From Promethearchaeota archaeon (GTDB taxonomy: Archaea; Asgardarchaeota; Lokiarchaeia; Sigyniarchaeales; SOKP01), in assembly GCA_048939015.1 (NCBI GenBank), contig JBHLPW010000001.1, positions 64,001-128,000 on the forward strand: 64,000 nucleotides of DNA, read 5' to 3'. How positions within the stretch are numbered: position 1 is the first letter of the stretch; every line of letters begins with the position of its first letter. Shown here piece after piece: positions 57,356 through 63,022 of this stretch. Below the pieces are notes generated by a model, which had not been told where the DNA came from, did no database searches, and saw only the letters and a list, made by a program, of their open reading frames with translations. The position numbers were made by a program, and so were the translations under genes.

Positions 57356-58345
57356 ATGAGCGCAATAAAAGTTAGTAATCTATCGAAACATTTTAAACCT
57401 CCTAAAAGAAGCAAACCAGGGAAAATGGAATCAAACGGTCCGAAACAAAAAATGAATATGATACGAGCTGTGGATGATATTAGTTTTGAAGTTAAGAAAG
57501 GTGAAATTTTTGGATTTTTGGGACCAAATGGTGCAGGAAAAACAACTACAATCAGAATGATGACAGGCGTATTAAAACCTACAACTGGAAATGTGTCTAT
57601 ATTCGAGCATGATGTATGGAGAGATCAAATTCTAGTTAAAGAGATAACTGGAAATGTTCCTGAGGAAGCAAATGTATATTTTGATATGTCAGGGTTGCAG
57701 AATTTAATGTTTATTGGAGAAATTTATGGAGTTCCTAAAAAAGATCGTCAAGAACGAGCAGAAGCTCTACTTAAGAAATTTGAAATATATGAGAAACGCA
57801 ATTTGAAAGCAATGAAATATTCAAAGGGAATGAAACAACGTTTATTATTATGTATGGCGTTGATGAGTAATCCAGAGATATTATTTCTAGATGAACCAAC
57901 AAGTGGATTGGATGTACAGTCTTCTCGTATAATTAAACAACTAATTAGAGAATATAATGAAAAAGGGGTGACAATCTTTCTTACGACCCATGATATGGAA
58001 GTTGCAAATGAATTATGCCATAGAATTGCAATTATAAATCATGGTAGAATCATCAGTTTGGATACTCCTGAGAACTTGAAAATATTAACTCAAGAATATA
58101 AAGCAATCGATTTTTATTTAGCAAGTGGAGTAACTAAAGGAAAAGTTGAAGATTTAAGCACAATAAAAGAAGTTGAAGAAGTAAGAGAAGGCTTTCACGT
58201 AATTGTGGAGGACATTCATGAAAGTATATGTGAAATTGTTGATTTTATCAAAAAGAATCATCTAGTAATAAAGCAACTGAATACCCATGAACCAAAATTA
58301 GAAGATGCATTTTTAAAAATCATAGAAAGAGGTGGTCGAAATTAA
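57356..58345 (+). CDS. ABC transporter ATP-binding protein (DrrA-like exporter)
   Basis: GPNGAGKTT, YSKGMKQR, LFLDEPTSGLD, LTTH. Confidence 0.96.
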   Translation: MSAIKVSNLSKHFKPPKRSKPGKMESNGPKQKMNMIRAVDDISFEVKKGEIFGFLGPNGAGKTTTIRMMTGVLKPTTGNVSIFEHDVWRDQILVKEITGNVPEEANVYFDMSGLQNLMFIGEIYGVPKKDRQERAEALLKKFEIYEKRNLKAMKYSKGMKQRLLLCMALMSNPEILFLDEPTSGLDVQSSRIIKQLIREYNEKGVTIFLTTHDMEVANELCHRIAIINHGRIISLDTPENLKILTQEYKAIDFYLASGVTKGKVEDLSTIKEVEEVREGFHVIVEDIHESICEIVDFIKKNHLVIKQLNTHEPKLEDAFLKIIERGGRN

Positions 58346-59129
58346 CAAGGAATTCTCAGTAATTAAAAAATCTAGCTTTAGGAATTTTAAGATGCAAATA
58401 AAACGATCCTTTACTGTTACCAAAAAAGATTTAAAAATATATTATAATAAACCACCTGTTATAATCCAAGGAATATTTTTTCCAATTATCCTGTTTTTTG
58501 CTTTTACAGTAGGAAGAAACATATTACCGGTTTATCTCATTTCTGGAATAATAGCAATGGTTCTTTTTTTAACATCAACTTCATTAGGACCAATAATTTT
58601 TCCATGGGAAACTATGCGTGGTACATTTGAAAGATTAATAACTTGTCCGGTTTCAATTAAAACGATATTACTTGGTAGTATTTGGGGTTCATTTATATAT
58701 GGTTTGTTATTCTCATCCATTCCCTTAATTTTGGGAATGATTTTTCTCTCCAGTGGATTAGCCATTAATTATTTTCTAATTATATTTGCTATGATTATTT
58801 CTGCTTTAGTTTTTTCTAGCTTTAGTTTGATCATCTCTGCTCCACCAACAAGGAATCCAGGAAATACAATGATTTTACAAATTTTCATCAAATTTCCTTT
58901 ACTATTTATCAGCCCCCTTTTTATGCCAATAAAGGAAATTCCAACAGCAATAATATCTCCACTTACATATTCTCTTGATATATTAAATATAGGGTTAGGA
59001 GAAGTAAGTGCTTTTGGTAATTTCGGTTTACTTATAGATATTTTGGTCCTATTAGTATTCGGATTTGGGTTTCTATTTTTGGCTTTTGCTATTCATCAGA
59101 AAACACTTGAGAAAAGATTTCAAGGATAA
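58332..59129 (+). CDS. ABC-2 type transporter permease
   Basis: GTFERLITCPVS, SPLFMPI, SPLTY; about 6 TM; overlaps the ATPase stop. Confidence 0.92.
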   Translation: MVEINKEFSVIKKSSFRNFKMQIKRSFTVTKKDLKIYYNKPPVIIQGIFFPIILFFAFTVGRNILPVYLISGIIAMVLFLTSTSLGPIIFPWETMRGTFERLITCPVSIKTILLGSIWGSFIYGLLFSSIPLILGMIFLSSGLAINYFLIIFAMIISALVFSSFSLIISAPPTRNPGNTMILQIFIKFPLLFISPLFMPIKEIPTAIISPLTYSLDILNIGLGEVSAFGNFGLLIDILVLLVFGFGFLFLAFAIHQKTLEKRFQG

Positions 59130-59182: not shown

Positions 59183-59346
59183 CTATATTAAAATGTTAAA
59201 TATATTCTAGTATCTAAAAACTTTAAGAGTGTTTTTGTAGACTCAAATTTCTTCTTTAATGCAGTTTTAGGTTAATTTCTGCCAACAACTATAAAAATAT
59301 GAAATTCATTTATATCTTTAAAAATTTTTTAAAATTTATTACAATC

Positions 59347-61056
59347 ATGGTCATGGATGGGGATACTAAAGGATATATATTAAAAGAGAGAATCTTTAAA
59401 GCTTTAAATTTTCCATCTGAAAAGACCATTTCAGCAAAATTAATAGCAGTTTGGGTAATTTTATCAAGTCTTATATATGGTACTATTGCAGTATTAGAAA
59501 CTAATATAACTTTACTACAACAATTCTATGTTATTTTTATTGCATTTTCATGCATTACTGGTTTTTCATTTACTTTAGAATATTTTCTCCGTATTTGGAT
59601 TTATAATCAAAAAGCTATAAAAGAGAGTTCACTTTCAAAACGATGGAATTATTTTACAAGCATTACAGGGTTAATTGATTTTCTAAGTGTTATTTCATTT
59701 GCAACATTTTTGATAGGTATTTTTATTTATGAAGTACTGGATTATACACGAATATTACGTTTAATAGTATTTCTTAAATTCGCTCGTTATTCTAGCTCTT
59801 TTCAAATTTTATTAGCTGTAATAAAACGAAAAAAAGAAGAATTATTGATTACTTTAATGCTTTCTTTAATTTTGATGTTTTTTGGAGCTATTTTTATATA
59901 TATTGCTGAACATGAAGCCCAACCAGACAAGATTACAAATCTATTTAGTTCTATGTGGTTTACAGCAATAAATCTGTTTACAATCGGATATGGGGATATT
60001 GTACCATTGACTCCATTTGGAAAAATAGTATCAGGAATTATATCCTTTATAGGAATAACTTTATTTTTATTACCAGCAAGCGTAATTGTATCAGGATTTC
60101 TCGAAGAAATTGAAGAAAGGAAACCTTCTTCAGAAATTTGCCCCAACTGTAAAGAAGATATTCCAAAATCAGAGTTTATAATTAAATTAAGAAGAAAGAA
60201 GAATAAAAAAAAAGCTTCAAAAATTTCTTTAAAAGGGAATTATAAAAAGAAGATATACAAATCAATTCAATTTAATTTTCCTACTAAATTAGGGCAAAAG
60301 ATCATATTTATTTTCTTTATAAGCATTATAACACTAAATATTCTGGCTATAATGGTTGGAACTAACCCAGAATTATCACTAGAACTTAGTAGCTTATTAA
60401 ATTCTTTGTTGCTATTTTCAATCATTATATTTACTATTGAATATTTATTACGAGTCTGGTGTATTGTTGCTTCAAAAAAAACTAAATATAAAGATCCTTT
60501 TAAAGGAAGAATAAGATATCTTTTTAGCCCAATAGCGATTATTGATATGATTACTCTTCTTACTTTATATTTTATGTTTTTTTTCAGTTATATTCAGATT
60601 TTAGTTTTATACCTCCAAGTATTAAGGATGTTAGTTATATTTAAAATTGGACATTTTATTGATGTGTTTAGAGTTGCCCGTTTAATTTTTAAGGAAACAA
60701 AGCGGGAGTTTTTCGTTACTGTCATTATCTGCAGTATATTTCTTATATTTGCTTCTACAATACTTTATTATCTTGAGAGAAATGCTCAACCAACTAAATT
60801 TGGAGATATTCCTACTACGTTATGGATGGGAATTATCACATTTACTACTACAGGTTTTGGTGATGTATACGCAATAACTACAGGTGGTCGTTTTTGTACA
60901 ATAGCACTAGCCTTTATTGGAGTATCACTTTTTATTTTACCTGCTGGTATTCTTGGATCCAACTTTTTTAGTACTATGCAAGCTTACCGCTATTATAAAA
61001 TCTGTCCAAAATGTGAATATATTATAACAAAACCAAAAATTAAAATTAGAATTTAA
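59347..61056 (+). CDS. Tandem two-domain (2x6TM) voltage-gated-type potassium channel
   Basis: Two full S1-S6 repeats: FTLEYFLRIW / FTIEYLLRVW, filters TIGYGD (59980-59997) and TTGFGD (60847-60864), each repeat ending in CPxC; start at ATG 59347 or 59353. Confidence 0.9.
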   Translation: MVMDGDTKGYILKERIFKALNFPSEKTISAKLIAVWVILSSLIYGTIAVLETNITLLQQFYVIFIAFSCITGFSFTLEYFLRIWIYNQKAIKESSLSKRWNYFTSITGLIDFLSVISFATFLIGIFIYEVLDYTRILRLIVFLKFARYSSSFQILLAVIKRKKEELLITLMLSLILMFFGAIFIYIAEHEAQPDKITNLFSSMWFTAINLFTIGYGDIVPLTPFGKIVSGIISFIGITLFLLPASVIVSGFLEEIEERKPSSEICPNCKEDIPKSEFIIKLRRKKNKKKASKISLKGNYKKKIYKSIQFNFPTKLGQKIIFIFFISIITLNILAIMVGTNPELSLELSSLLNSLLLFSIIIFTIEYLLRVWCIVASKKTKYKDPFKGRIRYLFSPIAIIDMITLLTLYFMFFFSYIQILVLYLQVLRMLVIFKIGHFIDVFRVARLIFKETKREFFVTVIICSIFLIFASTILYYLERNAQPTKFGDIPTTLWMGIITFTTTGFGDVYAITTGGRFCTIALAFIGVSLFILPAGILGSNFFSTMQAYRYYKICPKCEYIITKPKIKIRI

Positions 61057-61073: not shown

Positions 61074-62774
61074 TTAGATAACTGATACGGTAATGGTTAT
61101 CATTGATACGATAAAAGCGCTTATAATAGTGCCTGAGATTATATTTCCTGTTTTCCTATATAAAGCAACATACACAAAACTCGATAATAAAGTAGTAGGT
61201 ATGGTAATGGGCAGATAAACTCCAAAATTGAAAAAACTTCCGAATAAAAAGCTAAAGAAAAGCAGAAATACTATCATATACAAAATCTGTTCACCAAAAG
61301 TAATTAATCCCGATATTATTTGTCCCTTAATTCCATCTTTAACTTTGTTTTGGATTACTGTTTGGTTTAATAAACTGTATATAAGAAAAACAAAGAAGCA
61401 TATCACAAAACATATAAAAATATATAGAACTTTAGTTAGAGATGGTATTATTGCAAAATAGTTTAGCCCTACTGATAAATAGATGATTATGAACAGAATT
61501 GGTGTTAAAATTGCACCTAAAAGTAATTGGTTAATGAAATTATTTCTACTCTTAAATGGCCCAATTAAAACGTTCTTTAATGGAGTGTCTACTTTCTTCC
61601 CGAGTCTCCAAAGTAAAATTAAAAATGCAAACATTTGACCACATAAAAGCATTAAAACATTTCCGGCTGTAAATAAAGGAAAGAAATATAAAGGCATAAA
61701 AATAAGAATTCCTGGTAAACCAAGTATTAAAGAATATGCAACTGCTCGTAATGCTAAATTAGTTACTGATATATCAGGCAACTCTATTTTTAAAATCACT
61801 TCGTCCTCTCGGTTTACTTTTCTAATTTTTAAAATTAATTTGTAAATCGGATCAATAAGTAAAAAGAACAAACCCATACCACCAAATAGTTGAATTATCA
61901 AAATAACAAATCTTATGTTTACATAAAAGTTTTCATCAGGTTGTCTTACATCTGGAAATGTATTAATTACCCAATTTCTAGCTTCTCTTATAAAATCTTG
62001 ATCCCAAGCAAGCAATAAATGATTAGTATTATCATCTAGGAAGATCATAGAAGCGTTACCGTCTTGGAAGCTTCCATAAAGTTTATTTACATCGATATTA
62101 TCGGAAGTGGTATTGAGTCTTAACGCCATACCCTCTTTTAATCTTGATACAGTAGATACTTCATCAAATCGAGCTTGGATCATAAGAATATTTAAACTTC
62201 GATTAGAATTAGCTTTTATTGAATATTCGGGGTGATAGTCTGCTGTAGGTAGTCCCGTTCCAATTCCTATGAAACACTTAAAATCGGTATCTTCTGAAAT
62301 AATCTGAATTCCTGGGTACCCTCCCATGGAATAACCTATATATCCAATATTATTTATGTCAACATCATCTCTAGAATTTAAATATTCTTTAATTGCTCTA
62401 ACATCATCAATTATCTCTCCTCGATCGAGTTCCCCAAGACTTTGCCCGTGTCCTCTGAAATCAAATACCACGGCTATAAAACCTGCATTCGCTAATTCAA
62501 TCGCGTATCCTTTCAATATTTCTTTATTTGCCATGACACCATGTCCTATTATAATAGCTTTTTTATCGTTGTTGCCATTATATTTTTGATAAAAAGTTTC
62601 TTTTGGCTCAAATACATTAAAAGAGATAGTTACCCCATCCACTGTTTGAGTTGTTAATCCGTAGGTACTTTTAACACTCAGAGGTATAGTAAAGATCAAA
62701 ACAGTTCCAGTTATGAAAACAATAAGGAAAGTAAAAATTAGCAGTATCTTTTTTCTTGTCAAAATTCTACTCAT
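61074..62774 (-). CDS. Alpha/beta hydrolase with C-terminal multi-TM domain
   Basis: IIGHG, FDFRGHGQS, GYSMGG nucleophile elbow, RFDE, TNHL; hydrophobic C-terminal half. Confidence 0.87.
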   Translation of the reverse strand: MSRILTRKKILLIFTFLIVFITGTVLIFTIPLSVKSTYGLTTQTVDGVTISFNVFEPKETFYQKYNGNNDKKAIIIGHGVMANKEILKGYAIELANAGFIAVVFDFRGHGQSLGELDRGEIIDDVRAIKEYLNSRDDVDINNIGYIGYSMGGYPGIQIISEDTDFKCFIGIGTGLPTADYHPEYSIKANSNRSLNILMIQARFDEVSTVSRLKEGMALRLNTTSDNIDVNKLYGSFQDGNASMIFLDDNTNHLLLAWDQDFIREARNWVINTFPDVRQPDENFYVNIRFVILIIQLFGGMGLFFLLIDPIYKLILKIRKVNREDEVILKIELPDISVTNLALRAVAYSLILGLPGILIFMPLYFFPLFTAGNVLMLLCGQMFAFLILLWRLGKKVDTPLKNVLIGPFKSRNNFINQLLLGAILTPILFIIIYLSVGLNYFAIIPSLTKVLYIFICFVICFFVFLIYSLLNQTVIQNKVKDGIKGQIISGLITFGEQILYMIVFLLFFSFLFGSFFNFGVYLPITIPTTLLSSFVYVALYRKTGNIISGTIISAFIVSMITITVSVI

Positions 62775-63022
62775 ATGAATTTTCACATTTAATTTTTATT
62801 TAAAATATTATATTTAGTATTATTTATTCATTTAAATTAATTTTTTAACCAACCACGATTAATTGATTACTATTTTTATGAAAATAACTTTCAATATCTT
62901 TAAAGAGATAAATATTTTCAAAAACTCTACTAAATTTCATAGATATATCTTATTATTTAAATCATTATTTACCAATAATAAATTAGAAAAAAAGTTAGTG
63001 TTGGAATTTCGATTGAAATTCC

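Follow-up and report, generated by a model that had tools for sequence, protein, structure and literature searches.

The tandem design of K+ channels, in which two six-transmembrane (6TM) units are carried on one chain, is known from eukaryotes. Tandem Kv-like channels with GYG selectivity filters have been described in dinoflagellates, oomycetes and a chlorarachniophyte, in a survey that covered eukaryotes only (PMC7576140). An earlier survey, from 2005, did not encounter two-pore-domain K+ channels, including the 12-transmembrane (12-TM) form of Paramecium, in 270 prokaryotic genomes (PMC2234077). Two-pore-domain K+ (K2P) channels were reported as not found in prokaryotes in a 2026 paper (PMC13715775), and the origin of the tandem architecture is stated as unknown in the literature (PMC2234077, PMC13715775). 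A survey of Asgard transporters does not mention a two-repeat K+ channel family (PMC7997004), and no report of prokaryotic tandem 6TM K+ channels was found in open-access papers and preprints. Here, a gene for such a protein is described from 64,000 nucleotides (the window, to which all positions refer) of a Promethearchaeota archaeon (GenBank assembly GCA_048939015.1, contig JBHLPW010000001.1, positions 64,001 to 128,000). The gene, at 59347..61056, encodes a 2x6TM subunit of the Kv type (VIC superfamily) and belongs to a family of Asgard archaea. As this conserved archaeal family shows, the step from a homotetramer to a covalent pseudo-tetramer would also have been taken in prokaryotes.

Gene structure and domain content

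The channel gene is contained in a single open reading frame (ORF) spanning 59299..61056 on the forward strand, which runs uninterrupted through both repeats. Translated from the ATG at 59347, the protein has 569 amino acids. The in-frame ATG at 59299 is probably not the start that is used, because a TATA-like run directly precedes it and because the alignment of homologs, which begin level with position 59347, favours the latter. Pfam recognizes two Ion_trans (PF00520) and two Ion_trans_2 (PF07885) domains in the protein. Scored separately, the halves reach 60.7 and 64.4 bits for Ion_trans (curated cut-off 25; E 1e-16 to 1e-17), and an alignment of one repeat with the other, running from S2 through S6, shows 28% identity (E 5e-32). 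An AlphaFold2 (AF2) model built on 30 homologs (mean predicted local distance difference test score, pLDDT, 77.7; predicted template-modelling score, pTM, 0.70) contains 12 transmembrane (TM) helices, 2 pore helices and 2 terminal hairpins. Each repeat is modelled as a pre-S1 helix followed by S1-S4, a helical S4-S5 linker, S5, a pore helix and S6. The main parts of the gene, all on the forward strand, are the following.

59347..61056, +: whole gene, with its stop codon, of the Kv-type K+ channel of two repeats (2x6TM; ORF list, translation, start alignment of homologs, Pfam)
59428..59790, +: voltage-sensor domain I (VSD-I; S1-S4, residues 28-148; AF2 helices, column counts over 30 homologs)
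59731-59790, +: S4 of repeat 1, S4-I (..TRILRLIVFLKFARY; translated coordinates)
59797..60120, +: S4-S5 linker helix, S5, pore helix, filter TIGYGD and S6-I with LPAS hinge (residues 151-258; AF2 model, alignment)
59980-59997, +: filter 1, TIGYGD (translated coordinates)
60139..60150, +: CPxC knuckle 1, CPNC, C265/C268, in a short beta hairpin (invariant Cys pair; AF2 strands 262-280)
60187..60237, +: basic inter-repeat linker (residues 281-297; low model confidence, poor conservation)
60238..60654, +: pre-S1 helix and voltage-sensor domain II (VSD-II; residues 298-436; AF2 model, column counts, conservation)
60595-60654, +: S4 of repeat 2, S4-II (..QVLRMLVIFKIGH; translated coordinates)
60664..60990, +: S4-S5 linker, S5, pore helix, filter TTTGFGD and S6-II with LPAG hinge (residues 440-548; AF2 model, alignment)
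60844-60864, +: filter 2, TTTGFGD (translated coordinates)
61003..61014, +: CPxC knuckle 2, CPKC, C553/C556, in a short beta hairpin directly after S6-II (AF2 strands 550-561)

A preliminary description of this stretch, made from the letters and the ORF list, had read one uninterrupted ORF with two S1-S6 K+-channel repeats and had expected 12 TM segments plus two P-loops; the Pfam domains, the inter-repeat identity, the homologs and the model bear this out. It had also placed TIGYGD and TTGFGD filters, one CPxC motif per repeat and a basic linker, and translation of the exact coordinates returned every motif at the position quoted.

Distribution of the family

The preliminary description had proposed a search for full-length two-repeat homologs across Asgard archaea and other prokaryotes, and about 48 such homologs were found. 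They share 33-80% identity, come from independent assemblies and all carry both repeats in one frame; every labelled one is from an Asgard archaeon. In a word-indexed search, some 40 proteins from NCBI, JGI, ENA and Logan assemblies covered 97-100% of the query at 40-79% identity, and those with a name bore the Asgard labels Promethearchaeota, Hodarchaeota, Thorarchaeota or Hermodarchaeota. An exhaustive search of representatives added more distant two-repeat members, of which P0105, P0106, P0108-P0111 and P0113 have both CPxC motifs and P0115 and P0116 have none. Next to the channel gene, the contig of P0115 carries further compact genes of prokaryotic kind as well as one for a small GTPase of the Arf/Ras type, in agreement with an Asgard origin.

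Within the phylum the family is narrow and patchy in its distribution. At E <= 1e-20, matches among 301 genomes sampled from the phylum were confined to the GTDB family of the source organism (11 of 68 genomes; 6 of 22 in the same genus), the 29 other families in the sample giving none. When the species genomes of GTDB were all scanned with a pattern, full-length two-repeat matches came from eight archaeal metagenome-assembled genomes only, the bacterial matches all being of single-repeat span. In the source genome (4.86 Mb, 94.9% complete), searches for Ion_trans and Ion_trans_2 matched this gene's two repeats and nothing else. The gene is therefore the only P-loop channel found there, with no partner subunit.

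Origin of the two repeats

The nearest relatives of the repeats are single-repeat prokaryotic channels of about 270 amino acids. In a tree of 143 repeats, the two-repeat proteins have their first repeats in one clade and their second repeats in a different one, each with a support of 96 and with parallel branching inside, P0115 and P0116 being basal in both. As the first and the second repeats are each gathered in one clade, the trees indicate that the fusion took place once, inside an Asgard lineage and separately from the eukaryote-like multi-repeat K+ channels. An independent duplication in an Asgard lineage, as suggested in the preliminary description, agrees with these trees and with the genome scans. 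A second tree (IQ-TREE, site-heterogeneous model, 74 rows) gave a support of 96 for repeat 2 and of 94 for repeat 1 together with P0190. When repeats 1 and 2 were forced into one clade against the sampled single-repeat channels, the likelihood was 26.9 log units better than that of the free search (P value of the approximately unbiased test, p-AU, 0.914). Internal duplication of one ancestral gene is thus consistent with the data, albeit not proven.

P0190, a single-repeat protein of 292 amino acids that falls in the repeat-1 clade, was considered as a relative from before the duplication. It was set aside, as it is encoded on a 1.2-kb contig (L097) of 3x coverage with a chimeric-looking 3' end. 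Its motifs are a mixture of repeat-1-like and repeat-2-like ones.

Other multi-repeat GYG proteins recovered in the searches (P0107, P0114, P0118 and P0153) form clades of their own with internal duplications of their own, and the P0118 group has relatives in transcriptome collections of marine eukaryotes (MMETSP/MERC). Proteins of the P0107, P0114 and P0118 type are probably protist channels of the kind described before (PMC7576140).

Voltage sensors

Conserved residues were counted by column in the alignment of the 30 homologs. From the outermost to the innermost position, S4-I carries R135 (22/30), R138 (26/30), V/A141, K144 (30/30) and R147 (30/30), and S4-II carries L/Q424, R427 (19/30), V430, K433 (27/30) and H436 (30/30). 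S4-I is therefore the richer of the two in charge, as the preliminary description had seen. A complete charge-transfer centre is present in both domains, consisting of F75, E78, R82 and D111 in VSD-I and of F362, E365, R369 and D400 in VSD-II. Invariant columns of the alignment include K144, R147 and Y148, H436, both filters, both Cys pairs and both charge-transfer centres.

The suggestion that the channel would have only two working sensors is not borne out by the alignment: VSD-II retains its charge-transfer centre, K433 and the invariant H436, and is more conserved than VSD-I (mean pairwise identity within the family 0.48 vs 0.38). Although VSD-II has few charges, this conservation indicates a domain that is constrained rather than decaying.

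Pores and selectivity filters

The pore modules are well conserved, with a mean pairwise identity within the family of 0.69 for repeat 1 and 0.62 for repeat 2. Both repeats have the K+ signature T-x-G-Y/F-G, the T and G positions of which are invariant. The filter of repeat 1 reads T-I-G-Y-G, with T212, G214, Y215 and G216 invariant. That of repeat 2 reads T-T/V-G-F/Y-G, with T500, T501, G503 and G505 invariant; G-F-G is present in 25 of the 30 homologs and G-Y-G in the remaining 5, so that the pairing of GYG with GFG noted at the outset is a conserved property of the family. GFG filters are K+-selective in known channels. The hinge in S6 is LPAS in repeat 1 and LPAG in repeat 2, the latter being the KCNQ motif. 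The family thus reveals features that diverge after duplication, namely the charge of S4, GYG versus GFG, and the S6 hinge.

CPxC knuckles and linker

Both CPxC knuckles lie some 15-16 residues past the conserved S6 glycine, as judged from the alignment and the AF2 model. C553, P554 and C556 are invariant, and the C-terminal tail (residues 549-565) is well conserved, with a mean pairwise identity of 0.63. The linker between the repeats is of a different nature: it is predicted to be disordered (pLDDT <50 at residues 284-296), its mean pairwise identity is 0.23, and indels among the homologs vary its length.

A single CPxC about 5-25 residues after S6 was taken as a knuckle in the relatives. 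By this measure, a lone CxxC, mostly CPHCG, follows a few residues past S6 in 93 of 161 single-repeat relatives. This indicates that the knuckle is ancestral and was retained by each repeat rather than created by the fusion. The two-repeat proteins that are complete at their ends comprise 46 with both knuckles and 2 without any; a lone knuckle was not seen in this set. One CxxC is insufficient to bind zinc by itself. The simplest reading is that neighbouring knuckles pair into Cys4 sites below the bundle crossing, in the tandem protein and in the single-repeat tetramers alike. The occurrence of one knuckle per subunit in the single-repeat relatives (P0117-P0250, mostly about 260-320 amino acids) likewise suggests inter-subunit Cys4 metal sites at the gate of channels that form a widespread group. 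A description of the lone CPxC tail in this group was not found in the open-access literature. As the tail is common to many bacterial channels, it may point to a metal site at the gate that has gone undescribed.

Comparison with known channels

The closest relatives in sequence are unnamed single-repeat prokaryotic CPxC channels of 260-320 amino acids, mostly from bacterial metagenomes (P0117, P0148 and P0159 among them), which are 30-40% identical to each repeat. They share with each repeat the Kv-type S1-S6, a GYG filter and a CPxC motif at the same distance after S6. These channels are presumably homotetramers with four identical sensors and filters, whereas in the Asgard protein two diverged repeats with a GYG and a GFG filter and unequal S4 charge are covalently joined.

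Of the solved structures, those nearest in sequence to the repeats are Kv2.1, KCNQ1-5, Kv4, Kv1.2 and MlotiK1. When the family profile was compared with the PDB, the best 60 matches were all single-repeat Kv channels (2.6e-54 to 1.5e-23). Two-pore channels (TPCs) were not among these best 60, and weaker matches further down the list are possible. Foldseek placed KCNQ2, KCNQ1, Kv4.2 and Kv2.1 at the top, each over one repeat of the model. Compared by repeat, the model gave a Z of 16.5 and a root-mean-square deviation (rmsd) of 3.8 Å with KCNQ1 and a Z of 16.2 and an rmsd of 2.7 Å with Kv4.2. With KCNQ/Kv7, Kv2.1 and Kv4 (6uzz, 8sd3, 7e7z), the Asgard protein has in common the long helical S4-S5 linker and the charge-transfer centre and, in repeat 2, the PAG-type S6 hinge of KCNQ. 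These eukaryotic channels differ in being single-repeat tetramers with T1 or calmodulin-binding cytoplasmic domains, in lacking the CPxC tail and in having a fuller ladder of S4 charges. The basic residues at every third position of S4 and the charge-transfer centre that characterize a Kv channel are present in the Asgard protein, albeit with only R427, K433 and H436 in the S4 of repeat 2; instead of the one 6TM unit per chain of a Kv homotetramer, there are two.

The protein had been called TPC-like in the preliminary description, which applies to the layout of the model and not to the sequence, the latter being like that of Kv and KCNQ channels. An aligner of whole chains placed TPC protomers at the top, with 10-14% identity and rmsd values of 7-11 Å: AtTPC1 (Z 20.9, 457 residues, rmsd 11.0 Å), TPC3 (Z 20.2, 442 residues, rmsd 7.6 Å), mouse TPC1 (Z 18.8) and human TPC2 (Z 18.5). 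TPC1-3 (5tua, 6c96, 6nq0, 6v1q) also have 2x6TM per chain and form dimeric pseudo-tetramers with two unequal sensors. They lack GYG filters and are permeable to Na+ and Ca2+, whereas both Asgard filters are of the K+ type. TPCs have a cytosolic domain between their repeats, with EF-hands in plant TPC1. K2P channels resemble the Asgard protein in having two P-loops per chain, commonly with a GYG/GFG filter pair, and in being dimers of dimers, and their protomers matched the two pore domains of the model (residues 190-550) with a Z of 12-13. They differ in having 4 TM segments per chain, no voltage-sensor domains and an extracellular cap, as against 12 TM segments and two S1-S4 bundles in the Asgard protein. 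Sequence and model together indicate that Kv-type building blocks are arranged in the manner of a half channel, like those of TPC and K2P.

The same 2x6TM layout with two K+ filters is found in the eukaryotic tandem Kv-like channels (PMC7576140) and in the 12-TM channels of Paramecium (PMC2234077), which are known from sequence only. The preliminary description, in which 2x6TM proteins were not of the GYG type, was incomplete in this respect. In the eukaryotic tandem Kv-like channels, too, the repeats fall in separate clades, are about 30% identical and differ in S4 charge. The eukaryote-like multi-repeat proteins from the searches belong to other clades and, unlike the Asgard repeats, have no CPxC tails. 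An independent origin of the Asgard and the eukaryotic tandem channels is the better reading of these sequences.

Proposed assembly and gating

The data are best explained by a Kv-type 2x6TM subunit that forms a dimer with one K+ pore, a specialised second sensor and putative Zn sites, a reading to which a probability of about 75% is assigned. Each chain bears two non-identical 6TM units, each with a sensor and a pore module, separated by a short basic linker. Since a chain provides two of the four quarters of a pore, and since no further P-loop channel gene was found in the genome, the most likely assembly would be a pair of chains that encloses a single K+-selective pore as a pseudo-tetramer of two-fold symmetry. 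GYG and GFG filter strands would alternate around this pore, as in many K2P channels. The length and helical form of both S4-S5 linkers make a domain swap of the voltage sensors, as in Kv1-9 and KCNQ, probable. VSD-I, in which four S4 charges are kept, is more likely to be the main voltage sensor. VSD-II, without the outer charges and with an invariant His at the innermost position of S4, would be a conserved specialised sensor or scaffold; its strong conservation, including that of H436, argues for a specialised role rather than none. The CPxC hairpins, inherited from single-repeat ancestors, would be level with each other, slightly beneath the S6 bundle crossing, and probably pair into Cys4 metal (Zn) sites between neighbouring S6 ends, stabilising or tuning the gate.

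Several points weigh against this reading. At the position that corresponds to the fourth arginine of S4, both sensors have a hydrophobic residue (V141, V430), and the voltage dependence could therefore be weak or absent. The pattern of both knuckles or none may reflect a single loss event. The dimer, the K+ selectivity, the voltage gating and the binding of zinc or another metal are what we infer from the motifs and the model. Prediction of a homodimer from two copies of residues 150-566 with the alignment gave a score of 0.12 against a mark of 0.42, and was counted neither for nor against.

A more far-reaching proposal, put forward tentatively and rather doubtful as a whole, is that the protein represents an independent prokaryotic covalent half-channel, the sensors and filters of which were specialised after duplication and the four Cys of which, from two half zinc knuckles, form an inter-repeat metal site under the gate, which would make it a metal- or redox-tuned two-fold Kv channel. 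If so, this small protein would serve as a tractable model of how the path from 1x6TM to 4x6TM channels began, and the single CPxC at the end of many bacterial Kv-like channels would be an unrecognised inter-subunit metal clamp. As a short protein without a large cytoplasmic domain, it would in any case suit structural and electrophysiological work on asymmetric voltage sensing.

Alternative explanations

The A-rich and poorly conserved linker might suggest that two adjacent single-repeat genes were joined by an error of sequencing or assembly, and the preliminary description had named a stop codon or frameshift in the linker as a sign of two separate genes. Neither is present between the repeats in this gene or in its counterparts in 11 related GTDB genomes; one TAA that was flagged in these counterparts lies upstream of the real start codon of the gene concerned. 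The same single-frame layout is seen in the roughly 48 homologs, and assemblies as independent and as divergent as these cannot share one frameshift error, which indicates that the fusion is real. With the repeats also diverging together in parallel clades, an artefact has hardly any probability left. A horizontal gain from a eukaryote with a tandem Kv-like channel, such as a SAR protist or Paramecium, would account for the design, as tandem 12-TM GYG channels occur in protists (PMC7576140, PMC2234077) and as multi-repeat GYG proteins with MMETSP/MERC relatives turned up in the same searches. It is very improbable: P0107, P0114, P0118 and P0153 stand in separate clades with duplications of their own, in a tree that was built without bona fide oomycete or dinoflagellate sequences, and the Asgard repeats bear the prokaryotic CPxC tail. 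Equally improbable is that the protein is a member or a prokaryotic forerunner of the TPC lineage, and hence of the 4x6TM Cav/Nav channels, tempting as the shared 2x6TM layout, the top rank of TPC protomers among the whole-chain structural matches and the Asgard host may be. The low identity and high rmsd of those matches speak against it, as do the 60 best profile matches, the K+-type filters and the kinship with single-repeat prokaryotic CPxC channels. The confinement of the family to one family of the phylum, with patchy occurrence, misfits vertical descent into eukaryotes, and this narrow distribution disfavours any direct role in the origin of eukaryotic channels.

A more serious competitor, unlikely though worth weighing, concerns gating. 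The sensors may have ceased to sense voltage, the S1-S4 bundles serving as scaffold in a channel of the leak type or one gated otherwise, by pH through H436 or by Zn or redox state through the CPxC motifs. There are no more than four basic residues in S4-I, interrupted by a hydrophobic one at position 141, and S4-II has one to two plus the His; the invariant His and the four invariant Cys are at places where they could affect gating. MlotiK1, one of the sequence relatives, is a 6TM channel that is reportedly not made voltage-dependent by its S1-S4 bundle. Nevertheless, the full charge-transfer centre (F, E and R in S2, D in S3) in both sensors and the conservation of K144, R147 and K433 form the pattern expected of sensors the charges of which still interact with the centre, and the sensors are clearly under constraint.

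Neighbouring genes and other observations

No operon partner of the channel gene is conserved across the family. Tail to tail with it, at 61074-62786 on the reverse strand, lies a gene for a 570-amino-acid protein with an alpha/beta-hydrolase-like N-terminal part and a long multi-TM C-terminal part. This gene adjoins the channel gene in several genomes of the same genus (83-86% identity) and not beyond it. Just upstream, at 57356-59129 on the forward strand, an ABC ATPase and an ABC-2 permease are encoded by genes with overlapping stop and start; homologs of this ABC exporter occur near the channel gene in some relatives, at varying positions and in varying orientations.

Some of the two-repeat homologs (P0026, P0028, P0033 and P0035) carry an N-terminal extension in alignment columns 1-40, which starts with a zinc-finger-like C-x2-C...H-x4-H motif (MP.CPICGK...H.NS.FHQ.AL) and is not present in the source protein. 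The only "eukaryotic-like" VIC protein of strain MK-D1 in the Asgard survey (PMC7997004) was considered as a member of the family and rejected, as it is an 8-TM protein that matches an Entamoeba entry.

P0107 (L096:160-4641), which clusters with P0114 and P0118, proteins with MMETSP/MERC relatives, has 1493 amino acids and is encoded by a single unbroken ORF on a metagenome contig of 6.2 kb. Each of its four Ion_trans repeats has a TIGYG filter, and the protein probably represents a 4x6TM K+ channel from a protist. In a further set of metagenome K+ channels (P0050-P0067, P0127, P0129, P0145, P0168, P0217 and P0227), extra S1-S4 modules resembling voltage sensors precede a complete 6TM unit, their number being one, except for two in P0127 and three in P0168.

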